Virus record (IMG/VR): IMGVR_UViG_3300038548_000456
Location: 1-63,910 of that record
Source of the DNA: a virus
Lineage: Duplodnaviria > Caudoviricetes
DNA: 63,910 nucleotides
Strand: one strand, 5' to 3'
The notes beneath the pieces are model-generated. The model ran no database searches. It was not told the DNA's origin and saw only the letters and a program-made list of their open reading frames with translations. This document shows, one piece after another, positions 11,364 to 45,419 of the stretch. Made by a program: the position numbers and the translations under genes. Position 1 is the first letter of the stretch. Every line of letters begins with the position of its first letter.

Positions 11364-12956
11364 ATGATCTCAGTCAATTTCGGCCTCGTTCATGCACCAG
11401 CGGAGTTCAACTACGATACCGGAATTGAAGACCTAGCAGACGAGATCGTCACAGAGCTGGAGGCAGCCAATGAAGACTGGCTCACAGTTTGGGATGCACT
11501 GACTGAGGAAGAACTGCACTTCTTGCGATGGCAGATATGCTGGAAAGCTATGGCGCGAGTCAAGCAACTGCCGCCCAAGGAGTTCGCTGAAGGTATCAAG
11601 ACGATCTGGGGCGTCCGCTCTGGTCGTGGCTTTGGAAAGACCTTATGTGCAGCTAACTGGTTAGGTACTGAAGCCAGTCTCATTCCAGGTCACTATGCAG
11701 TAATTGCACCAACTCATGACGATGTGAGATACACCTGCTTCGAGGGGCCGACGGGTCTTCTGTCTTGTATACCTCCTGCTCTGATTACATACCAGAATTC
11801 ATCTCTACCAATGCTGGGCCTGTGGAATGGGTCAGTCATACGAGGCTTTGCAGGGGACGTACCTGAGCGCCTGCGCGGTCCTCAGCATAACAAGATCTGG
11901 TGCGACGAGATAGCATCCTGGAAATATCCGCAAGACGCCTGGGACAATCTGATGTTTGGCCTGCGTCTCGGCAATCTGCCTCAAGTGTTGTGGACGGGTA
12001 CTCCAAAACCCACACCATTCATTCGCAAGCTGGTTGACGATCCTAAAGGGATCTGTGTTGTAGGATCCACTTATGAGAACGAAGCAAACCTCACTCCTAT
12101 CTTCTATGAGAACGTCGCTAAGTATGAAGGCACCAAGATAGGACGACAAGAACTGTACGGCGAAGTGCTTGATCCTGAAGAGGAGGGCTTCGTCAAGAGA
12201 TCTCAGTGGAGACTGTGGCCAGCCAAGAGACCACTGCCGAAGTTTGTCTACATCATCTACTCTCTGGATACAGCATTCAAGGAGAAGACTTATGACAAGA
12301 AGAAAATGCAGTCTGATCCCACAGCTTGCTCAGTGTGGGGAGTATTCAACATCAAACGATTCGGGCAGACAGAAAAGCATGTCATGTTGCTCGATTGCTG
12401 GGAAGATTATCTCGGTCTGCCTGGTCTAATCAAAAAGGTAAAGCGCGAGCGCAAGAAGACCTATGGCGATGCTAGTGAGCCTCGTATTCGCCCACAAGTT
12501 GAGATAAAAGCCCATAGGGTAGGACATCAGGGCAGGAAGATAGACCTCATACTGATAGAGGAGAAGGGCAGCGGGATAAGCCTGATGCAATCGCTAGCTA
12601 CTGAAAACATTCTGACACACGGGTATAATCCTGGCAATGAAGACAAGTTAACGAGGCTACACGTTGTATCACCCATGTTCGCACACGGCAGAGTCTGGGC
12701 CGTCGAATCAGAGATCAATCCAGGAGAGTTCAGAACATGGGCTGATCCTCTGGTGTCACAAGTCTGCAGTTACATCGGGCCTGGTAGCACCGAACATGAT
12801 GACCTGCTGGATACGACTACTCAAGCTTTGCGCTTGTTAATGGAGAAGTTCTTTGGATCATTCACAATCAAGAAAGACCCCGAACAGCAGAAGCGAGATG
12901 CCGCAAGAGATGAGCAAAAGCGTAGGAAACGGAAGCGAAATCCTTATGGGAACTAA
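11364..12956 (+). CDS. terL: Terminase large subunit
   Basis: Walker A SGRGFGKT, LRGPQH, Walker B IWCDE, TGTP, RQELYGE, nuclease SLDTA, IEEKGSG, HDDLLD. Confidence 0.95.
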   Translation: MISVNFGLVHAPAEFNYDTGIEDLADEIVTELEAANEDWLTVWDALTEEELHFLRWQICWKAMARVKQLPPKEFAEGIKTIWGVRSGRGFGKTLCAANWLGTEASLIPGHYAVIAPTHDDVRYTCFEGPTGLLSCIPPALITYQNSSLPMLGLWNGSVIRGFAGDVPERLRGPQHNKIWCDEIASWKYPQDAWDNLMFGLRLGNLPQVLWTGTPKPTPFIRKLVDDPKGICVVGSTYENEANLTPIFYENVAKYEGTKIGRQELYGEVLDPEEEGFVKRSQWRLWPAKRPLPKFVYIIYSLDTAFKEKTYDKKKMQSDPTACSVWGVFNIKRFGQTEKHVMLLDCWEDYLGLPGLIKKVKRERKKTYGDASEPRIRPQVEIKAHRVGHQGRKIDLILIEEKGSGISLMQSLATENILTHGYNPGNEDKLTRLHVVSPMFAHGRVWAVESEINPGEFRTWADPLVSQVCSYIGPGSTEHDDLLDTTTQALRLLMEKFFGSFTIKKDPEQQKRDAARDEQKRRKRKRNPYGN

Positions 12957-16207: not shown

Positions 16208-16396
16208 GTGCCACAGATCGAACAGATCTTCATAGAACGATTAAAAGAGGAACAGGCCGGATGCATCCAACTTCTCAAAACACCGAAGGACAAGACTGCC
16301 TTTGGATATGGAGAAGCCTGTGGAACGCTCCAAGGCCTCAATCGTGCCGAGCAGCTGTTCTTAGATGTGATAGGGGAAGTAGATGACCAGACTTAA
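16208..16396 (+). CDS. Small head-module protein
   Basis: GAGG SD; lies just before the GroES-like gene. Confidence 0.65.
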   Translation: MPQIEQIFIERLKEEQAGCIQLLKTPKDKTAFGYGEACGTLQGLNRAEQLFLDVIGEVDDQT

Positions 16397-16826
16397 CGTC
16401 GCAGAGATACCTGACCACAAACAGACTCACGAAGATGCAATGTCTTTCGCGTTTCCGAATGTGAAGCCAGGTCTTACGCCTTATGGATCTCGCGTTCTCG
16501 TGCAGATCCGTACGCCCAAAACTGTGACGGAAGGTGGCATTCTTATTCCAGAGGAAGCCAGGCAAACTGAGAAGTGGAATACTCAGGTTGCTAAAGTCAT
16601 CACGCTTGGACCTGTCTCATTCAAGAATCGCGAAACTCTTGAATCGTGGCCTGAAGGGGATTGGTGCTGGGCAGGCACATTCGTTCGTGTTCCGAAGTAT
16701 GGAGGCGATCGATGGGAAGTTCCAGTGCCTGGCAGCCAAGACCCCGCGCTATTCGTATTGTATAATGACCTCGACCTTCTCGGTCAGTTTGTCGGCAATC
16801 CATTATCCGTAAAAGCATTCATCTGA
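16383..16826 (+). CDS. groES: GroES-like co-chaperonin
   Basis: LTPYGSRVLVQ, TEGGILIP mobile loop, VITLGP, KYGG, LYNDLD. Confidence 0.85.
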   Translation: MTRLNVAEIPDHKQTHEDAMSFAFPNVKPGLTPYGSRVLVQIRTPKTVTEGGILIPEEARQTEKWNTQVAKVITLGPVSFKNRETLESWPEGDWCWAGTFVRVPKYGGDRWEVPVPGSQDPALFVLYNDLDLLGQFVGNPLSVKAFI

Positions 16827-35872: not shown

Positions 35873-37735
35873 ATGAGTGGGTTAGGATATGCAAAGGGCG
35901 GAGAAATAAGAACTCCTCAAGAATTCTTCGCAGGGATGGAAGAGATCACTTCGGTTCCCGGCGGATCAGAGATGTTGATGAGTGCATTGGCTGAGCAAAT
36001 GACTGGTAAGAAACAATCTGGAGTCAAGAATCTTCGATTGTACAAGATGGGAGGTTCTGTCAATTATGCTGAAGGTGGCTTAGCAGCGGCAGAAGAAGTC
36101 CGAGGCATGGGGCGAGGAGATGATGAGATCTTACTTCATGTCTCTCCTGAAGAATATGAAGCTCTTACTGGAATGTGGGGAGAGCCAGATATTAATCCCA
36201 ACACAGGAATGCCTGAGTATGGTTTTCTGTCTAAACTTTGGAAGAAAGTCAAAGGAGTTGTAAAGAAGATTGTCAAGAGTCCCATCTTTCAATTTATAGC
36301 TCCAATTGCTTTGAATGCCTTCATCCCTGGAGCAGGATCAGCTCTAGGTGGTGCTCTAGGTCTTGGAGGAAAAGCTGCCACAGTAGTTGGTAATACTCTT
36401 ATTCGCTCAGGAATCGGCGCAGCAGGAGGAGGTAAAGAAGGCGCTCTCTCTGGTGCAATTTCAGGACTAACTGGAGGAGGAGCAGGATTAAGCCTTGGAA
36501 AGACTCTAGGATTAACAGGTCGAGCTGCTGAAATGGCTGGCAATGCGCTTATCGGAGGAGCAGGTGGGACGATAGGTGGAGGAGGCTTCGCTCAAGGTGC
36601 TCTCGGAAACGTAATAAACGCCGAAGCGATGAGAGCTTTACAACCTCTTGAGACAGGGATCGGAAAAGGCCTGAAGAACATCTTCGCTCCTGGCACTGGA
36701 GGGATGAGCATGGTAACCTCTGGAACTGGAGAGATGAGTCCTGTAGGACAACCTGACATCTTTGGAGGAACTCCAGGTGGTGCTATTGACATGTCTCCCA
36801 TTCCGGGGTCAGGGGCACTAACTCAATTAGGAACTCCCACCTCCGGTAACTTTCTCACCCGAGGTTGGGATTGGCTAAAAGAAAACCCTGAATTGGCTTT
36901 GGCAGGAGCAGGAGTATTAGGAAGCCTAAGAGGAAGTGGTGAACCTGATGGTCCTCCCGCAGGTGGAGGAGGAGATTTTGGAGGACCTATTCCTGAGTAT
37001 GCTTTAGATCGAACTCGACAGACCATGGATCCTAATGCCTATTATACTTATGGACAAACTGGATCAGAACAACCAGGTGAGTTTCAATTCTGGGGAAATA
37101 ACACCGCAGGAACGCCAACAGCCCCTCCAACTTCAGGAGGAGGCGCGGATCTGTCTCAAGAAGATCTTCAGTCTATGATGGCTCGACTGTCATCGATGAG
37201 TGGAGGCTTCGCAGAGGGAGGTCACTCCAAGGGCGGAGGATCAGGACGTGATGATACCATTGAAGCATTACTATCTGACGGCGAATATGTAATGGATGCT
37301 GAGACTGTCTCTTTATTAGGAGACGGTAGTAATGATCATGGAGCAGCACGTCTTGACGAAATGAGAGAAGCACTGCGCAAGCATAAAGGAAAAGGTCTTG
37401 CGCGAGGAAAGTTCTCGGCAGACGCTAAACGTCCACTAGATTATATGGAAGGAGGTAGAGCTGCTTATGCTGGAGGAGGCAAGGTTAGACAATTAAAGAA
37501 GATGGCAAGAAAGATGGATAGAATGTTAGCAGAAGAAGTTCCAGATAAAGAGATCCGAGAAATACAAGCAGCTATGAATAGACTTCAGAGAGGATCAGTC
37601 AAGAGGGCTTTGGATGCCGTCAATTCTGGGGAAGATGCAGCAAGTGCCTTTCGAGAGAAGAAAGCTCGGGGCGGTAGAGTAAAAAATCAAATGTTAGCAA
37701 GGCGAATGAGAGTGCTCGCTAGAGGAGAAACATAA
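35873..37735 (+). CDS. Putative internal virion/ejection protein
   Basis: Gly-rich hydrophobic core, six [FY]xxGG motifs, GSGRDDTIEALLSDGEYV module. Confidence 0.75.
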   Translation: MSGLGYAKGGEIRTPQEFFAGMEEITSVPGGSEMLMSALAEQMTGKKQSGVKNLRLYKMGGSVNYAEGGLAAAEEVRGMGRGDDEILLHVSPEEYEALTGMWGEPDINPNTGMPEYGFLSKLWKKVKGVVKKIVKSPIFQFIAPIALNAFIPGAGSALGGALGLGGKAATVVGNTLIRSGIGAAGGGKEGALSGAISGLTGGGAGLSLGKTLGLTGRAAEMAGNALIGGAGGTIGGGGFAQGALGNVINAEAMRALQPLETGIGKGLKNIFAPGTGGMSMVTSGTGEMSPVGQPDIFGGTPGGAIDMSPIPGSGALTQLGTPTSGNFLTRGWDWLKENPELALAGAGVLGSLRGSGEPDGPPAGGGGDFGGPIPEYALDRTRQTMDPNAYYTYGQTGSEQPGEFQFWGNNTAGTPTAPPTSGGGADLSQEDLQSMMARLSSMSGGFAEGGHSKGGGSGRDDTIEALLSDGEYVMDAETVSLLGDGSNDHGAARLDEMREALRKHKGKGLARGKFSADAKRPLDYMEGGRAAYAGGGKVRQLKKMARKMDRMLAEEVPDKEIREIQAAMNRLQRGSVKRALDAVNSGEDAASAFREKKARGGRVKNQMLARRMRVLARGET

Positions 37736-38622
37736 TGCCAGGTGTACTAGACTTTCTGTTTGAAGGCAGGCCACCCTCTTCCGTTACGACTTACGGAGAA
37801 ACAGTCGAGAACATTCCAAAGTGGCTGTCTGATTATACGCAGGGACTGATTGGACGTGCTAATGTCATAGCAGCTGAGCCCTATCAAGAGTATGGAGGTC
37901 CTCGCATATCGGGATGGGCTCCTGAGCAGCTTGAAGCCTTTGAATCAGGGCGGGAGAATATTGGAGCCTGGCAGCCGGGGATAGAAACTGCTGGGGGATT
38001 GACTCAAGCGGGAGCGGCCTCATTCCCTGGTCAGGTTGGAGAGTACATGGATCCATACATCGGAAATGTACTGGATCGACAAGCTGAGCTTTCTCAAAGA
38101 CAACTCACAGAACAATTCATTCCTGAGCTTCAAAGTGCTTTTGTTGGATCTGGCTCATTCGGTGGTGATCGAATGATGGATCTTGGTATTCGAGGAACTC
38201 GAGATATTGCTGAGGGATTACAAGGACAACAACTTGGAGCTCTATCTCAGGCATACGGACAAGCCGGACAATTGTTTCAACAAGACAGAGCTCGCGAATT
38301 GGCAGGGGGACAACAGATGGGAGCTCTTGCAGAGGCAGAACAAGCAATGCTGGGAAGAGATGTCGCAGGACTCGAAGCAATTGGGGCACAACAGAGAGGC
38401 ATGGGCCAACAGAGTCTGGATCTGGCTTATCAAGACTTTCAACAACAGCGTGACTATCCACGATCACAAGTTGATTGGATGTCAAATATTGTTCGAGGTC
38501 TTCCAAGCTCGACTCAGACAACTACTTCTCAGACCGGACCGGCAGATATTTATGGTCCCTCTCCGCTATCTCAGATAGCCTCATTGTACTCAACTTACCG
38601 CGGTCTACAACCGGGAGAATAA
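37735..38622 (+). CDS. Putative DNA ejection/pilot protein
   Basis: Q/G/A-rich; YMDPYI..V, FGGDR, IGAQQR..QQSLD.AYQDF. Confidence 0.7.
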   Translation: MPGVLDFLFEGRPPSSVTTYGETVENIPKWLSDYTQGLIGRANVIAAEPYQEYGGPRISGWAPEQLEAFESGRENIGAWQPGIETAGGLTQAGAASFPGQVGEYMDPYIGNVLDRQAELSQRQLTEQFIPELQSAFVGSGSFGGDRMMDLGIRGTRDIAEGLQGQQLGALSQAYGQAGQLFQQDRARELAGGQQMGALAEAEQAMLGRDVAGLEAIGAQQRGMGQQSLDLAYQDFQQQRDYPRSQVDWMSNIVRGLPSSTQTTTSQTGPADIYGPSPLSQIASLYSTYRGLQPGE

Positions 38623-38623
38623 G

Positions 38624-41332
38624 ATGGCAGGTTATCAAGAAGGCGGCTTAGCTGCGGCAATCGGCGCTCCTGATGAAGAAGAGGAAGAAACTCAGGTAAA
38701 CCAGATTCAACAGCTTCAGGCTGGACAACAAGGCTTCGATGTTGAAGAGTTTATAGGAAGATATGAAGAAACAGCTGAGCAATCCCGTCAAGCTCTTAGA
38801 GATGCTCGAGAGAAAGTTTTAGCAAGAGAGTATGATCCTCGTCAGATGTGGTTGGCTGCGGCTGCTGCGTTTGGTAAACCTACTCGGACGGGACAGTTTG
38901 GAGAAACTCTGGGTAATCTAGCTGGAGCCTTACAACCTGAGTTCGCAGCTCGAGATGAGTTCGGTCGAGCAAAAGAAGAACAAATCCTAAGTCTTGATCA
39001 AGCTCTTTCAGGAGTCGATCGAGGTATGCTGGGTAGCGAACTCAAGTTAAGACAACTACAAGAGTCTCAAAGACTATCCAGACAAGAGTTAGACTTCAAG
39101 CTGCAAGAACGTCGTGACAAGGAGATGAAGCAGAATCTAACTCACGAAGCAGGTATGCGGAAAGAATTCAACACTCTCCTGAAAGATTATGAGAAAGTCT
39201 CTGATGCTTATGGACGAGTTCAGTCTGCTGCGAAAAATCCCTCTGCTGCTGGCGATCTGGCAATGATCTTCAACTTTATGAAAATGTTGGATCCAGGTTC
39301 CACAGTACGAGAAGGCGAATTTGCAACTGCTGCCGCAACAGCCGGTGTCCCTGGTCGAATCGTAACTCTCTATAATAACATGTTAAGAGGTGAACGATTG
39401 AATCCAGAGCAACGGCTTGACTTCTTGAATCAGGCTGTAGGCTTATATGGAACTGCCAAAGAAGGAGCTCAACTCAAAGCAGATGCATACAGAGCTCTAG
39501 CCATTCGTAATGAATTGGATCCTGAGGACATCACAGCAGTTTTTGACAATGCTTACAATAGATTTGATGCCCCATCGCAAAAGATCATGGTTAATATGCC
39601 TGATGGAGGAAGCTTCGAAGTATCCCAGAGTCTCGTGGATGCAGGCGACAAGAAAGAAATTGTTCGTCTTTATGAAGAGCACAAACAGAAACAAGGTTTT
39701 GCTGAGGGAGGGAAGGTTAAAAAGAAATTCCAAGAGGGAGGCACTGTCAACTTTGATGAGATTGAAGACGAGACTCTCGATCTGGAAGAGATTGGAGTTG
39801 AAGAGGAAGATATCGATATTGAACAAATTCTTCAATCACTGGGAGGAGCAGCAGCAGGTGCGGCAGTAGGTCCTTTAGCTATATCGGCTGAGCAGAGATT
39901 AGCTGAGATGGCACAGCCTCAACTTACTTCAGGAAGACCAGCTGAGCGAAAGATTGTCGAAGCTATGGAGATGAGCGGTACAGATCCTGCTACTGTAATG
40001 CAAGATGTTCGTCGTGGGCAACGACTTGGAGTTCCTGAGACACCTCTGGACGTTGGAGGTAGAATGACTCGAGTGCTGGGTGAGAAAGCTTTGATTGCTG
40101 GAGGACCAGAAGCAGAACAAGTCTTGTCTGAGCTAGGAGAGCGGCATGAAGGAAGTCGAGCTCGAGTAGAGGAACAAGTTAGTCGGAGATTCAAGACACC
40201 TGAGTATTTTGCTACTGAGGATAAACTTACCGAGAGACTTTATGAAAGAGCTAGACCCGCTTATGAGAAAGCCTGGTCTGAGAATCCAGCTCTTGATCAT
40301 CCTCCTTTCTGGAAGAAGATGGTTGACAATAAGTATGGTGAGCAGGCTGTTCACATGGCTCTCGACTTTATGGACGACATTGAACAAGAGCCTATCGGTA
40401 AGAAGAACATCGCAGGTTGGGTAGAACGTCCTAGCTTGAAATTCTTAGATCAAGTGAAGCGAGGGTTTGATCAACTCATTCGTAAGGAAGAGAACATGGG
40501 AGCCACTCCTCTTGGTCGACATCTTCGAGGAATGAGAAAGACTCTCGTGACTTGGTTAGATGATCCTAAGAACACTACTCCTGCTTATTCAGCTGCTCGA
40601 AAGCAATACAAAGGAGATCTAGAAATTCTCGAGGCTTTGGACACTGGTCGAAAACAGTATCTGAGGATGCCAACAGAAGAAGCGAAGCGTATGCTTCAAG
40701 GAATGCCCTGGGCAGAGAAGAACGCGCTGCGTGCTGGCGTTACTCAGCGTCTGTATGAGCAGCTAGATACTCCTACTTCAGATATCAATGCAGCTAGGAA
40801 AATCTTGGGCTCTCCAGGCGTCTCAGATAAACTGGCGTTATTGTTCGACAAGCCGAAAGATTTTGAAGTATTCAAAGCAGCTCTGCGTCGGGAGATGGAA
40901 CTCTTCCAAGAAGGTAAGAAGACACTTGGTCGAGCAGAACGAGGTCGAACCTCTCGAATGACTAAGGAGCTGACGTCTCAAGATGAATTCACTCCTGGTG
41001 CTGTACTAAAAACAGCGAGGGCTATTCGACCAGTTGAATGGTTCATGAAGTTCATTGACAGAAAAGACTTTAGACTAAGTGCTACAGAAGCTGATGAGAT
41101 TATCAAGATTCTGAACGAGGGGGACAATGCAGAACTTCAGAAGTTAGAACAGAGACTTACTCAGGTTGCTGCTTCTCGTAAACGTAAAGCTGCTCCAATT
41201 AGAAAGAAAGGCAGAGCTGCAGCAGCTGGTGCATTACTCGGAGGAATCGGTACATTCTTAATGACTGGAGAGGATGAAGAAGAAGAGATTAACATGGAAG
41301 AGATCGGTCAACTGCTCGAGGGACAGCAGTAA
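38624..41332 (+). CDS. Large internal virion/ejection protein
   Basis: 902 aa helical; KMLDPGSTVREGEF motif; three [FY]xxGG motifs; hydrophobic segment near the C-terminus. Confidence 0.75.
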   Translation: MAGYQEGGLAAAIGAPDEEEEETQVNQIQQLQAGQQGFDVEEFIGRYEETAEQSRQALRDAREKVLAREYDPRQMWLAAAAAFGKPTRTGQFGETLGNLAGALQPEFAARDEFGRAKEEQILSLDQALSGVDRGMLGSELKLRQLQESQRLSRQELDFKLQERRDKEMKQNLTHEAGMRKEFNTLLKDYEKVSDAYGRVQSAAKNPSAAGDLAMIFNFMKMLDPGSTVREGEFATAAATAGVPGRIVTLYNNMLRGERLNPEQRLDFLNQAVGLYGTAKEGAQLKADAYRALAIRNELDPEDITAVFDNAYNRFDAPSQKIMVNMPDGGSFEVSQSLVDAGDKKEIVRLYEEHKQKQGFAEGGKVKKKFQEGGTVNFDEIEDETLDLEEIGVEEEDIDIEQILQSLGGAAAGAAVGPLAISAEQRLAEMAQPQLTSGRPAERKIVEAMEMSGTDPATVMQDVRRGQRLGVPETPLDVGGRMTRVLGEKALIAGGPEAEQVLSELGERHEGSRARVEEQVSRRFKTPEYFATEDKLTERLYERARPAYEKAWSENPALDHPPFWKKMVDNKYGEQAVHMALDFMDDIEQEPIGKKNIAGWVERPSLKFLDQVKRGFDQLIRKEENMGATPLGRHLRGMRKTLVTWLDDPKNTTPAYSAARKQYKGDLEILEALDTGRKQYLRMPTEEAKRMLQGMPWAEKNALRAGVTQRLYEQLDTPTSDINAARKILGSPGVSDKLALLFDKPKDFEVFKAALRREMELFQEGKKTLGRAERGRTSRMTKELTSQDEFTPGAVLKTARAIRPVEWFMKFIDRKDFRLSATEADEIIKILNEGDNAELQKLEQRLTQVAASRKRKAAPIRKKGRAAAAGALLGGIGTFLMTGEDEEEEINMEEIGQLLEGQQ

Positions 41333-43152
41333 TGCCTAAAGCTAAGTCCTTATTGAAAGCTGGTCCTTCTCTTCATGAGGCAGCAAGAGAAGCCATTCAG
41401 AGGGGAGATACTACTGAGGCTCTTGCTTTATTGAGACAATTACAAGAGTTGCTTCAGTTAAGTGATGATGAATTTAGTAAGATGATGGGACAACAACATT
41501 CAGCTCCTCCTGCTAAAACTGTACCAGTCAATCCTCTTGATGAGATCTACGATCCTGAGACTCCAATAGGTGGATACAAACATGAGTTTGCTGAGGGAGG
41601 ATCTGCCAAGAAAGATGAGCGTCCTGCTAGAAGCCTTCTGAAAGCTCTGATGTCTTCATTAGGAGGAGCTATTCCTTTCGTTGGTGAAGAAGGTGCATTA
41701 GTTGGTCAGGACGTTGGCGAACGAATGTACGAGCTTGGAGCGTATCCCATCGCCGGACTTAAATCTCAGTGGTACGGAGTTGATCCGACCACTGGTGAAT
41801 TTGAATATGCAGGTCCAGGCTCAGGTCCAGCTTATCCTGATCCGGCTCTTGCGATGTATGACATGGAAGAGTATCGTCGTCAGTTGGATGCATGGAAAGC
41901 TGCTCAAGAACAAACTGGAGCTATCCCCGGGATCATCGATGAGACAGCTGCACTTCCTCTACTAGGAGGAATGGTAGGAGTCCCCACTCCTGAATTTGCA
42001 GAAACTGCTGGACTTAGAACTGAGGAGAACTGGGCAAAGTCTCTTGAATCATTGGGACTCGAGGAACCTGAAGGATTGGTTGAGAACACTTTGCTGGCTG
42101 GGGGGATGATGCTGGGTCAGTTGCCTATTCCCCTAGCTTGGGCCAATAGAGTTAAGCCGGTCGGAGGATGGCTCAAACGAGTAGCAGGAGCCACACCGAG
42201 ATTCGGTATGGAATTCTTATCTCCCATCATCGAGCCTAAAGTTGCTAACTACATCGGCGGTGCTCTGTTTGGTGGAGGTCTGATGACCATGCTTGAGCCC
42301 GGTGATATTCCTCCAGACATTGAAGAACTAGTCAAGCGAGCGAGAGAGGGTGACGAAGAAGCCTATGAGCAATTGAAGGTTCTCTACGAAGAGTACCAGG
42401 CTCAGCAAGAAGTTACAACGTCTGAGGAAGAAGGCGCACTTAGTCAGATGGAGAGATCGGTAAGGTTTGGTTATGCAGGCGGAGGTAAAGTCAAAGGTCT
42501 AACTCGTCGAGGATTCCTGAAAGGATTAGGAGCGACAATCACAACTGCTATGGGAGCAGGGAAGGCAGCACGTCATGCTGAGATTACTCCTCGACTGAAA
42601 GAGATTGAAGAAGCGATCATGCCAGCGCGTCATGCTGTCAAGAAATCTATTCCTCATCTACAATCTGTTTCGGATTACCTTAGACGTGAAGCTGACAATG
42701 TGATGAGAGATATGCAGGATGACATCACTCGAGCAGCTGATAAGGATTCGATGCAATGGAAAGTTGAAGATCATCCTGATATGGATATGTACGAGATGTT
42801 TACAGGTGATGCTGACGACTATGACATTATTGTCAAATCTCTTGAAGAGGGAGATGTTGAATCGGCTGTCAAATATTACGACAATCTAGATACGGCTTCT
42901 CGAGAATCTATTTATGACTTCTTAGAACATGACAAGTTGCTTGATGTTCGAGAGATGTTCGCCAGAGGCAAGAGCGACTATGAATATATTCCACTCGAGC
43001 GACACCCTGAGTATGATGCGATTATTAAGAAAGCTGAATCGCTAAGAGAGCTTCGGGATCCTGATGATGATTGGTTTATTCGGAAGGCTATGGATCTAGA
43101 GAATGAAGGTTACAGTGGTCAAGATCTAATCAAGTTTATGGAGAATAGATAA
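41332..43152 (+). CDS. Putative internal virion protein with an internal twin-arginine motif
   Basis: FAEGG; YAGGGKVKGLTRRGFLK. Confidence 0.7.
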   Translation: MPKAKSLLKAGPSLHEAAREAIQRGDTTEALALLRQLQELLQLSDDEFSKMMGQQHSAPPAKTVPVNPLDEIYDPETPIGGYKHEFAEGGSAKKDERPARSLLKALMSSLGGAIPFVGEEGALVGQDVGERMYELGAYPIAGLKSQWYGVDPTTGEFEYAGPGSGPAYPDPALAMYDMEEYRRQLDAWKAAQEQTGAIPGIIDETAALPLLGGMVGVPTPEFAETAGLRTEENWAKSLESLGLEEPEGLVENTLLAGGMMLGQLPIPLAWANRVKPVGGWLKRVAGATPRFGMEFLSPIIEPKVANYIGGALFGGGLMTMLEPGDIPPDIEELVKRAREGDEEAYEQLKVLYEEYQAQQEVTTSEEEGALSQMERSVRFGYAGGGKVKGLTRRGFLKGLGATITTAMGAGKAARHAEITPRLKEIEEAIMPARHAVKKSIPHLQSVSDYLRREADNVMRDMQDDITRAADKDSMQWKVEDHPDMDMYEMFTGDADDYDIIVKSLEEGDVESAVKYYDNLDTASRESIYDFLEHDKLLDVREMFARGKSDYEYIPLERHPEYDAIIKKAESLRELRDPDDDWFIRKAMDLENEGYSGQDLIKFMENR

Positions 43153-44018
43153 TGCCTAGTGAAACACCCAAACAAGCTCGATTCATGGCCGCTGCAGCGC
43201 ATAATCCAAAATTCGCTAAGCGTGTGGGAATCAAGCCTAAGGTAGCTAAAGAATTTAATCGTGCCGATACTGGCACCAAACTGTTGAGTAAAGCAATGAA
43301 GAGACAAAGATATCAAGGTGGTGGATTAGCTCAAGCAGGTATGCGAGTACGAAGACCTCAGCAAGGACGAGGAATGATTCCGCCCCTAGGAGGTGGCCTA
43401 CAGCAGGCTGTCAAACCTCAGATAGATCCGCGGTCGAGAATGATGGGGACGACTCCGCCCCAGCGAACGATGGTTCCTCCGAATATGAGACCGCCTGGCG
43501 CCACGACAGGTCCTGTAGGGCCTCAGCAGATTCCGCCTGGTGTTCGACCAGGAACAGGCGCGCTTGGACAATACGCAGGAGCTGGTGGACGCTCAGGCGC
43601 CTTTAGACGTCCTCAGCAGCTCGCAGATGGACAAAATCGCTTTATGGGCAGACGACCAATGGGTGGAGCGCCAAACGGCCTGCTAAGGACAGCTCAGAGC
43701 GTCTCGCCGAACTATGGCGATAGGCTACAGGGTATGAATCGCCGTCTTCAATTCGCCAAGGGCGGGAAGGTGAAGCGAGCTATCGCAGCTTTACAACGAG
43801 CCAGGGTGGATCTTCAGGACAGTGATCCTAGCTTTGAGCTAATTGCTAGCGCACTCGGAAAGGATGTTCCCAACGCTGGAGGCATTGCTGCTGCCATTCG
43901 AGCGACTGCTAAGAAAAAACCCAAAACTGGCGCACCTGATGAGTTTCGCGCTGACTGGCAAAGTATCAATAAGAAGCTTGATGCTTTGGAAGAAGCTATA
44001 AGCAAAGCTGGAGATTAG
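43152..44018 (+). CDS. Putative internal virion protein
   Basis: MPSETPKQARFMAAAAHNPKFAK N-domain, P/G/Q-rich middle, YQGGG and FAKGG. Confidence 0.7.
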   Translation: MPSETPKQARFMAAAAHNPKFAKRVGIKPKVAKEFNRADTGTKLLSKAMKRQRYQGGGLAQAGMRVRRPQQGRGMIPPLGGGLQQAVKPQIDPRSRMMGTTPPQRTMVPPNMRPPGATTGPVGPQQIPPGVRPGTGALGQYAGAGGRSGAFRRPQQLADGQNRFMGRRPMGGAPNGLLRTAQSVSPNYGDRLQGMNRRLQFAKGGKVKRAIAALQRARVDLQDSDPSFELIASALGKDVPNAGGIAAAIRATAKKKPKTGAPDEFRADWQSINKKLDALEEAISKAGD

Positions 44019-44577: not shown

Positions 44578-44988
44578 TTAATTGATATTACTTTCTTCAC
44601 CAAAGATTACGAAAGGTTCGTAAGAGAAATCATCATCTCCCTCTACTGCCACCCGGATAGCCATAGTAGCTACTTGGATTGCTTCGTTGTAGACTTCAGC
44701 AGTGGTGACGTTTTCTCCTCGACTATGTTCCATCATTGCTTTGTTGAGTTCTCCCACTTCTTCATTCAAAGCTGTAAGCATATATTGAGCACCTGGGAAT
44801 TTCTCACGAGCTTGCTGAAGTTCTCCTCGGATTGCTCGAATGATTTTCCCATCGTCACTCCAAAGTCGCCTATGAGCAGAATCATTGACTTCCACACAAA
44901 GACAAAGATCAACTGTGATTCCGCATTCACTGCAGCGCTCTAGGAGTCTATGGTCTAAATAGGTGCAATGTCTGGTAGGTGTGCCCAT
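44578..44988 (-). CDS. MazG-like nucleotide pyrophosphohydrolase
   Basis: LNEEVGELNKA...EAIQVATMAIR. Confidence 0.6.
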   Translation of the reverse strand: MGTPTRHCTYLDHRLLERCSECGITVDLCLCVEVNDSAHRRLWSDDGKIIRAIRGELQQAREKFPGAQYMLTALNEEVGELNKAMMEHSRGENVTTAEVYNEAIQVATMAIRVAVEGDDDFSYEPFVIFGEESNIN

Positions 44989-45419
44989 CGTATTCTCCTT
45001 ACAATTTTTGAGACAGTTGGTTGTTGAATTTTGAATCTCTTAGCAATCTGAAGTTGTGTTTGTCCTTCTTTATAGAGTTGTCGAATCTTTTGGACTTTCT
45101 CAGAAGTGAGAGAGGAATGACCATTCCTTTGGCCACTCAGATTTGGTTGTCGATTCTTATTTCTCATATCCTCGTCATTAAGCTTTGCATCTCCAAGAAA
45201 CAAATGATTGGGATTTATGCAAAGAGGAGTATCACAATGATGACAGATCATCTTTTCTTCTGGAATGGGACCATGATGTAATTCATAACTGAGACGGTGG
45301 ACTGCGCGTTGTTTTCTATTAACTCGGAATGTTCCATATCCTCTTCCTGTTTTTGCACCTGTCCATATCCAACAAGAAGAAGTCTTATCTACTTGTGACC
45401 AGAAGACTTCTTTTCTCAT
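44955..45419 (-). CDS. HNH homing endonuclease with C-terminal HTH
   Basis: CWIWTG..GYG, HRLSY, CHHCDTPLCINPNHL. Confidence 0.9.
   Translation of the reverse strand: MRKEVFWSQVDKTSSCWIWTGAKTGRGYGTFRVNRKQRAVHRLSYELHHGPIPEEKMICHHCDTPLCINPNHLFLGDAKLNDEDMRNKNRQPNLSGQRNGHSSLTSEKVQKIRQLYKEGQTQLQIAKRFKIQQPTVSKIVRRIRWAHLPDIAPI

Follow-up and report, generated by a model that had tools for sequence, protein, structure and literature searches.

To our knowledge, twin-arginine translocation (Tat) signals have been reported from proteins that cells themselves produce and export. Phage P22 possesses an ejection protein, gp16, that is associated with the inner membrane, and Tat-like peptides are not known from the ejection proteins of either P22 or T7. 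Multi-domain phage proteins that are delivered by the virion are called polyvalent proteins, and in adenovirus and African swine fever virus the virion polyproteins are cut at Gly-Gly-X by viral cysteine proteases. Here we describe a locus that recalls each of these systems. It lies in a virus record of 63,910 bases (Duplodnaviria; Caudoviricetes; IMG/VR record IMGVR_UViG_3300038548_000456), complete and with direct terminal repeats, the whole of which is hereafter called the window. One of its open reading frames (ORFs), encoding 606 amino acids (aa), contains what we call a cassette, which we read as consisting of three pieces: a glycine-glycine (GG) boundary motif, a putative Tat-signal mimic peptide, and an acidic helical cargo domain. 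What sets the locus apart is a complete look-alike of a Tat signal that is both conserved and present in multiple copies within proteins most likely injected by the phage.

According to the available parts of one source (PMC7317946), Tat signals have an SRRxFLK core with a nearly invariant arginine pair, a Gly-rich hydrophobic region (h-region) of low hydrophobicity, a helix-destabilizing residue 12-17 positions beyond RR, and, in the c-region, a basic residue for Sec avoidance. Such a signal can also work from within a chain: the internal Tat signal of the Streptomyces Rieske protein Sco2149, of low hydrophobicity and with positive charges at its C-terminal side, is described as functional in the portion of the source at hand (PMC5449189).

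The twin-arginine peptide of the 606-aa protein

An earlier note on this DNA had drawn attention to a Tat-like peptide directly behind a GG motif, and its description holds up in detail. Bases 42472-42570 encode Y381-A413 (YAGGGKVKGLTRRGFLKGLGATITTAMGAGKAA), exactly the sequence it gave; TRRGFLK (42502-42522) fits the S/T-R-R-x-F-L-K consensus, and the weakly hydrophobic h-region is found as 13 uncharged residues after TRRGFLK (mean Kyte-Doolittle 0.92). The acidic fragment of about 220 aa that was said to follow GG corresponds to K386-R606 (221 aa, pI 4.87, 49 D+E, and 34 K+R). The GG motif itself is defined here over seven residues: an aromatic or aliphatic residue, one of A/S/Q/G/K, one of E/K/G/Q, and GG, often followed by K-V/I-K/R. 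The parts of the protein are as follows.

41332..43152 (+): 606-aa ORF that carries the cassette, directly 3' of the P22 gp20-like gene
41587..41607 (+): first GG motif, FAEGGSA (F86-A92), with no twin-arginine peptide after it; aligns with the FAEGG-type motifs of homologues
41704..42447 (+): conserved helical domain (about aa 125-372), common to 154 metagenomic proteins
42472..42486 (+): second GG motif, YAGGG (Y381-G385); G384 and G385 are nearly invariant in the family alignment
42487..42504 (+): KVKGLT (K386-T391), basic and n-region-like
42505..42522 (+): twin-arginine core RRGFLK (R392-K397); RR and Leu at +3 are invariant in 33/33 cassettes
42523..42561 (+): h-region-like GLGATITTAMGAG (G398-G410, 13 aa, Gly/Ala/Thr-rich, Kyte-Doolittle 0.92)
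42562..42570 (+): KAA (K411-A413), c-region-like, with a Lys that never varies in alignment A3
42571..43149 (+): acidic helical cargo domain (R414-R606), pI 4.59

Near its end the peptide has G-K-A, which would put small residues at the -3 and -1 positions of a candidate signal-peptidase site but is not an A-x-A. No Pfam or PHROG family matched the 606-aa ORF. Its helical domain has nearly invariant residues (M260, P265, E294, P298, P302, Y307, G314, and G315) and Gly-rich, weakly hydrophobic segments, with no classical transmembrane helix. The core motif of the cargo domain is common to the stand-alone proteins P0115 and P0132, both of which lack a twin-arginine peptide.

Taken alone, the match in the window is not significant: the back-translated consensus occurs once, versus 0.15 times expected, and 15 out of 100 shuffles also give at least one match.

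Conservation in relatives

A word-indexed search gave 8 homologues and an exhaustive HMMER search of 1.84 billion representatives gave 154 (E <= 0.001), many of which are 1000-2567 aa long; all counts in relatives rest on the best 150 of these 154 matches. A cassette was counted where a GG motif had a basic pair within 26 residues and then an 18-mer of which at least 75% was small or hydrophobic. This yielded 33 cassettes in 18 proteins, with up to five in a single protein (of 2567 aa). The basic pair is RR in all 33, without a KR, RK, or KK variant, and the source proteins are cluster representatives that are less than 50% identical. Conservation of RR behind GG in homologues was the point on which the earlier note had staked its reading, and RR is indeed kept in each of the 33 GG-linked cassettes. 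Nine further GG-linked basic pairs that lack such an 18-mer are RK, KR, KK, and, in one case, RR. GG and RR are genuinely coupled, with GG 3-13 residues ahead of RR in each of the 33 cassettes. Every cassette also stands before an acidic domain (pI 4.05-4.89). More distant relatives without the GG motif have RR as well: downstream of the shared domain they carry S/T/N-RR-x-hydrophobic, a brief h-region, and a Pro.

The strict consensus occurs 40 times in the 150 relatives versus 0.6 times in shuffles (maximum 3 in 200), and TATFIND-like sites number 44, in 28 of the 150 proteins, versus 2.8 in shuffles (maximum 7 in 100); the sites of the distant relatives without GG are among these 44. It is thus the conservation of the peptide, and not the match in the window, that lifts the apparent likeness above chance. 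When the 8 homologues are aligned, GG motif and twin-arginine peptide are in register in P0002, P0003, and P0008, and the pair stands further downstream in P0007. Of the others, P0004 and P0009 possess GG only, and P0005 and P0006 stop short of it. Four ORF calls have the cassette at the N-terminus, with RR at residue 15 (P0014), 13 (P0031), or 23 (P0099), or with the ORF starting at the motif (P0157).

Two syntenic IMG/VR contigs, L001 and L002, illustrate how the region varies. L001 encodes a 1521-aa fusion with two cassettes. In L002, an HNH gene is found exactly where the window has the twin-arginine cassette and cargo, and it may have displaced them. Taken together, L001 and L002 reveal a modular cassette.

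Searches for stand-alone forms with an N-terminal motif and for cultured relatives came back empty. A search of shorter proteins with residues 376-445 matched no stand-alone form (only 2 candidates shared words), P0031 and P0099 are absent from IMG/VR, and a pattern for ORFs that start with the motif gave one locus, where the motif is internal too. Neither the 606-aa ORF, nor its C-terminal part, nor polyprotein P0015 had a tblastn match in 50,697 phage records; a megablast of 10 kb had none in phage records either, and no relative was present among the genome contigs searched. A pattern match in a Marinimicrobia metagenome-assembled genome was set aside as chance.

Likeness to Tat signals

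Counted from the arginine pair, 32 of the 33 cassettes have T or S at position -1, 20 have Asp at +1, all have V, F, L, or I at +2 and Leu at +3, 26 have Lys at +4, and 32 have Gly at +5. A G, P, or S is found at +12 to +17 in 33/33, and the next charged residue beyond +4 is without exception a Lys, which stands at +18 in 24 cassettes, +22 in 7, +21 in 1, and +5 in 1. As far as the consulted parts of the literature list them (PMC7317946), all sequence features of Tat signals are, on this alignment, present and conserved in the 33 cassettes.

Profile searches agree with this picture. Against TIGR01409 (cut-off 16.7 bits), 18/18 cassettes tested match at E <= 0.01, and 17/18 match PF10518 (gathering score 22.7). 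Each of the five polyproteins scanned has PF10518 (TAT_signal) as its sole Pfam match (24.4-42.4 bits), and P0031 reaches 27.8 with this profile. Among 23 matches of a cassette profile, 10 carry a precomputed PF10518 annotation and two are named Tat-signal proteins by NCBI. The peptide of the window itself is borderline with TIGR01409, scoring 19.9 bits when presented as a 47-aa stretch and falling just short of the cut-off inside longer fragments. The occurrence of RR without KR, RK, or KK variants fits a specific reading of the arginine pair rather than a generic positive patch, and the cassette looks built to work like a Tat signal. We nevertheless refrain from filing it as one, because it does not stand at the N-terminus, the position that defines such signals, and its export is hypothetical.

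Readings as a Walker A motif, as a GlyGly-CTERM/rhombosortase tag, as a prepilin-peptidase site, or as a lipobox were weighed and rejected, as the order of the elements does not fit.

Predicted structure

AlphaFold (with 26 sequences) predicts a confident helical domain at about residues 125-370 (pLDDT about 80-95) and a moderately confident one at 445-606. Residues 376-441, in between, have a pLDDT below 50 and contain one short helix (393-407). A second model, of the C-terminal part, agrees with the full-length model. The cassette peptide is thus modelled as a flexible linear stretch between folded domains, as expected of a linear targeting peptide. No classical transmembrane helix was detected in the 606-aa protein (best 15-residue Kyte-Doolittle mean 1.41).

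Comparison of the full-length model with the PDB and viral models gave no match at E <= 0.001, and comparison of the C-terminal model with 48,161 chains returned only generic helical hairpins (Z < 8). PDB sequence searches with three neighbouring ORFs and the family profile were likewise without a match. A complex prediction of E. coli TatC with residues 373-445 had a score of 0.00 with an uncertain fold of the partner, and counts neither way.

The GG motif

The six frames of the window contain 10 GG motifs (35888-43772), all of them in four of the five ORFs of the ejection module. The 150 relatives add to this picture: of 329 GG motifs in total, 33 belong to cassettes and 296 occur without a twin-arginine peptide, which argues that the motif has a role of its own in the module. 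In these relatives GG marks the boundaries where modules were fused, split, or lost, with ORFs starting and ending at the motif. Two of the motifs in the window fall among the first 10 residues of an ORF, and a cut there would take off no more than a few residues.

P0015 has, after a plain GG motif, a non-acidic domain (residues ~430-560) that is enzyme-like by eye and has no Pfam match.

The ejection module and its surroundings

The window represents a complete 63.9-kb uncultured phage, and the carriers of the cassette are a group of uncultured podovirus-like phages. The 606-aa ORF belongs to a run of five genes on the + strand (620, 295, 902, 606, and 288 aa), of which the others are listed here.

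35873..37735 (+): 620-aa ejection-module ORF with GG motifs at 35888, 36065, and 37466 and a tape-measure-like Gly-rich stretch
37735..38622 (+): 295-aa ORF with a weak match to the 'DNA ejection protein' PHROG phrog_4287 (E 3e-4)
38624..41332 (+): 902-aa ORF with GG motifs at 38633, 39698, and 39728, resembling a P22-like 'DNA transfer protein'
43152..44018 (+): 288-aa ORF with GG motifs at 43311 and 43752 and, at its N-terminus, matches to PHROGs of virion structural proteins

The 'DNA transfer protein' of P22-like phages and an Mx8 virion protein are both matched by residues 165-303 of the 902-aa ORF; within this region, residues 177-271 match the 448-aa 'DNA transfer protein' of phage Kapi1, where a 723-aa gene comes next. 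Because of this match and the 448-aa/723-aa gene order in Kapi1, we place the 606-aa ORF at what we take to be the gp16 position of P22-like phages. Upstream of the ejection module lie a large terminase gene, a probable portal gene, a scaffold-like 325-aa ORF, and a gene for a Mu gpT-like coat protein. The coat protein has weak matches to fused protease-coat PHROGs, aligned to their coat part.

The large terminase (11364-12956, +) is 49% identical over 92% of its length to those of the Caulobacter phages RLK, RW, GB2A, and KcrB, whose genomes are of similar size (62 kb). The first 50,000 of the 62,366 bases of RLK are free of genuine GG or Tat-like motifs. In the virus record itself, neither TatC nor a tRNA was found.

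A few observations on the neighbouring genes can be added. Between the probable portal gene and the scaffold-like gene, a 147-aa ORF (16383-16826, +) matches Cpn10/GroES (Pfam E 3.9e-7; PHROG co-chaperonin GroES) and may be a phage co-chaperonin of the head module. Genes for HNH homing endonucleases adjoin the ejection module both in the window (44955-45419, -) and in L002 (11028-11540, +). The first ~50 residues of the 288-aa ORF (43152-43300) are 49-69% identical to short proteins or N-termini (virion structural or hypothetical) from jumbo phages (201phi2-1, PhiPA3, Phabio, and the PBECO4 group) and a Stenotrophomonas podophage, so that this N-terminus looks like a widely shared virion peptide. 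Finally, the C-terminus of the 902-aa protein (~41150-41332, +) has a Lys/Arg cluster, an Ala/Gly/Leu-rich stretch of ~18 residues, and an acidic tail, a signal-anchor-like layout without the twin-arginine consensus. The homologues in L001 and L002 end in the same way.

What the cassette may do

The 606-aa protein is probably ejected into the host with the DNA. We consider it possible, and tentatively prefer the reading, that the cassette is a true mimic of a Tat signal that addresses ejected cargo to the inner membrane or periplasm of the host. The protein would leave the virion with the DNA, after which the host Tat receptor TatBC would read the signal-like peptide, either once the protein has been processed at the GG boundary or in the manner of a loop-type signal within the chain (an option that would suit the single-cassette 606-aa protein). 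The basic residues would end up on the cytoplasmic side, and the acidic domain would lie either at the inner membrane or beyond it. The data themselves establish the cassette with its conservation, its scores on Tat profiles, and its location among the ejection genes; that the protein is present in the virion, that it is cleaved, that it meets Tat, and where its cargo goes are steps that we infer. That the peptide copies a Tat signal position by position, without any exchange of Lys for Arg, argues that something that reads Tat signals reads it, and the host TatBC receptor is the simplest candidate. The presence of one signal per acidic cargo points the same way, as it suits an address that each piece needs separately. 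Also in favour are the working internal signal of Sco2149, the short spacing between GG and RR, the ORF calls with an N-terminal cassette, the modelled flexibility of the peptide, and the place of the ORF behind the gp20-like gene, where P22 has its gp16. A bolder version of this proposal, which we find doubtful, holds that virion polyproteins are cut at GG into acidic effectors, each with its own Tat signal, which the host Tat machinery exports to the periplasm or by which it is jammed. Within minutes of infection, pre-made phage proteins would then go back out through the translocase of the host.

Critically speaking, several points weigh against reading the cassette as a Tat-signal mimic. 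RR is residue 392 of 606 and not N-terminal, and the four N-terminal cases are metagenomic ORF calls only. The peptide of the window is borderline in TIGR01409 when embedded in the 221- and 234-aa fragments (16.1 and 16.0, cut-off 16.7) and scores 15.7-18.4 with PF10518, below 22.7. The length of the h-region is nearly fixed by the Lys at +18 (24 cassettes) or +22 (7 cassettes), which hints at a different structural constraint; we know of no such fixed length in cellular Tat signals. A TATFIND-like site is missing from 122 of the 150 relatives and the peptide from 4 of the 8 closest homologues, while the 380-aa homologue in L002 ends just before the motif and is followed by the HNH gene, with no cassette; the cassette is therefore an accessory part. 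No dedicated protease family was recognized in 40 ORFs searched against PHROGs (20 of them also against Pfam), a scan that left small ORFs aside and leaves room for a protease of a novel kind or of the host; the head module, too, looks like a scaffold type that has no protease. It may also be that ejected proteins never come to the cytoplasmic face, the side on which TatC reads RR. Lastly, the basic-plus-hydrophobic segment of the 902-aa neighbour lacks the Tat consensus, so such segments may be a general membrane device of the module.

This last point leads to an explanation that does without Tat and that we think unlikely: the cassette would be a weak signal-anchor inserting into the inner membrane from its periplasmic face, and the membrane potential would draw the Lys/Arg cluster inward while the acidic domain stays outside. 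The cassette would form part of the ejection channel or anchor it, and the Tat likeness would be convergence. The module is rich in Gly-rich, weakly hydrophobic segments, the 902-aa neighbour ends in its Lys/Arg cluster, Ala/Gly/Leu stretch, and acidic tail without a Tat consensus (also in L001 and L002), the cargo is always acidic with basic flanks, and the fixed length of the h-region suggests a structural role. However, a stretch of 13 Gly/Ala/Thr residues (Kyte-Doolittle 0.92) has neither the length nor the hydrophobicity to cross a bilayer by itself, and a generic positive patch would tolerate Lys, yet RR is found in 33/33 cassettes and S/T at -1 in 32/33, with Tat-signal profiles scoring 18/18. 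Rather improbable in our view is a role in packaging or assembly, in which the cassette is the handle that loads the cargo into the procapsid or holds it at the stack of portal and ejection proteins, with GG as a trimming site or docking strand (or, in a sub-variant, with the cassette as a DNA-binding basic linker). T4 internal proteins have a capsid-targeting sequence that is comparable in logic. Such a handle would leave the position-by-position copying of a Tat signal unexplained, the c-region Lys included, and one per polyprotein would suffice if cutting followed packaging; also, no protease was recognized in the ORFs scanned. It does account for a conserved peptide directly before each variable cargo and beside a recurrent boundary motif, for the restriction of the 10 GG motifs in the window to four consecutive ejection-module ORFs (with 296 more in relatives lacking the twin-arginine peptide), and for the GG motifs at the very N-termini of separate ORFs.

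Slightly more improbable still, the peptide could be a tag for the Tat-signal chaperones SlyD and DnaK of the host, with no need for cleavage or export: each cargo domain, having lost its fold on the way through the tail, would gain protection in the cytoplasm and be folded anew there. As far as the accessible part of the source goes (PMC13673990), DnaK and SlyD bind Tat signals broadly, SlyD binds one such signal with a KD of ~0.5 uM to which the twin arginines add affinity, and phiX174 hijacks SlyD, a precedent for this explanation; the internal position and the single tag per cargo fit as well. Broad binding, however, should not need an invariant Leu at +3, a fixed h-region length, or a c-region Lys, and nothing points to an action of the cargo in the cytoplasm. 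A nested gene starting at ATG 42448 (M373), whose 234-aa product would have an N-terminal Tat signal and be exported late in infection (e.g., for exclusion or lysis), is very unlikely. M373 does stand 19 residues before RR, a normal length for an n-region, the P0157 ORF call begins at a Met directly before the motif, and Met is allowed at the first motif position. But the best Shine-Dalgarno-like match (5 of 6) is too remote at 13 nt upstream, P0002 and P0008 do not share the Met, L001 has one cassette without a nearby Met and another without a well-spaced ribosome site, and polyproteins with five cassettes would require five nested genes. Scarcely credible, finally, is a functionless flexible linker that resembles a Tat signal by accident. 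The 15 out of 100 shuffles that give a window match and the modelled disorder of the region speak for it, against which stand the 40 strict matches versus 0.6 expected and invariant columns that persist among proteins less than 50% identical. Indeed, the RR counts in cassettes, the excess of strict matches, the profile scores, and the position statistics already contradict it.

Meaning of the cassette

Full-text searches of the literature returned nothing on Tat-like signals in virion, structural, ejection, or injected proteins of phages, and a 2026 review on Tat mentions phages, in its available sections, only in other contexts. If the host does read the cassette, it would reveal a new route by which ready-made phage proteins are placed in the host envelope at the start of infection, and would provide Tat research with natural examples of internal signals in tandem whose RR never varies. 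Should the export or jamming variant be true, it would be the first injected phage cargo to be rerouted through a protein-export pathway of the host. If, on the other hand, Tat does not read it, the cassette would be a striking convergence and would point to an unknown rule for inner-membrane entry, capsid loading, or chaperone recruitment by ejection proteins.

Comparison with known systems

Bacterial Tat signals (PF10518, TIGR01409) share with the cassette the S/T-R-R-x-hydrophobic-L-K core, a Gly-rich h-region of low hydrophobicity, a helix breaker 12-17 positions after RR, a basic residue in the c-region, and small residues at what may be -3 and -1. Unlike them, the cassette is internal (392 of 606), occurs up to five times per chain in a structural module of a phage, is always preceded by GG, and has an h-region of nearly fixed length. 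The dual Sec-Tat substrate Sco2149 likewise combines an in-chain twin-arginine with a segment of low hydrophobicity and then positive charges, but there the signal comes behind two transmembrane helices inserted by Sec and ahead of a cofactor domain (PMC5449189, in the part available). The 606-aa protein, in contrast, has no classical transmembrane helix upstream, and its passenger is an acidic helical domain without a known cofactor.

In gene order and place in the structural module, the locus resembles the genes for the P22 ejection proteins gp7, gp20, and gp16 and the T7 core proteins, and a domain of the P22-like 'DNA transfer protein' recurs in the 902-aa neighbour. The 606-aa ORF itself has no tblastn match in the 50,697 phage records, no match among PDB sequences, and no clear fold match that would tie it to gp16. 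As in the Gly-Gly-X polyproteins, and in T4 internal proteins with their cleaved capsid-targeting sequence, a short GG motif recurs at domain boundaries of virion proteins. The adenovirus rule has the hydrophobic residue one position closer to GG than the phage motif does; moreover, no such protease was recognized here, and cleavage at the phage motif is hypothetical. Polyvalent phage proteins, finally, are matched by the relatives of 1000-2567 aa, which are multi-module proteins with shuffled cargo domains encoded in the structural region. What distinguishes these relatives from polyvalent proteins is that their modules are separated by a specific GG motif and that many of them are individually provided with a Tat-like tag.

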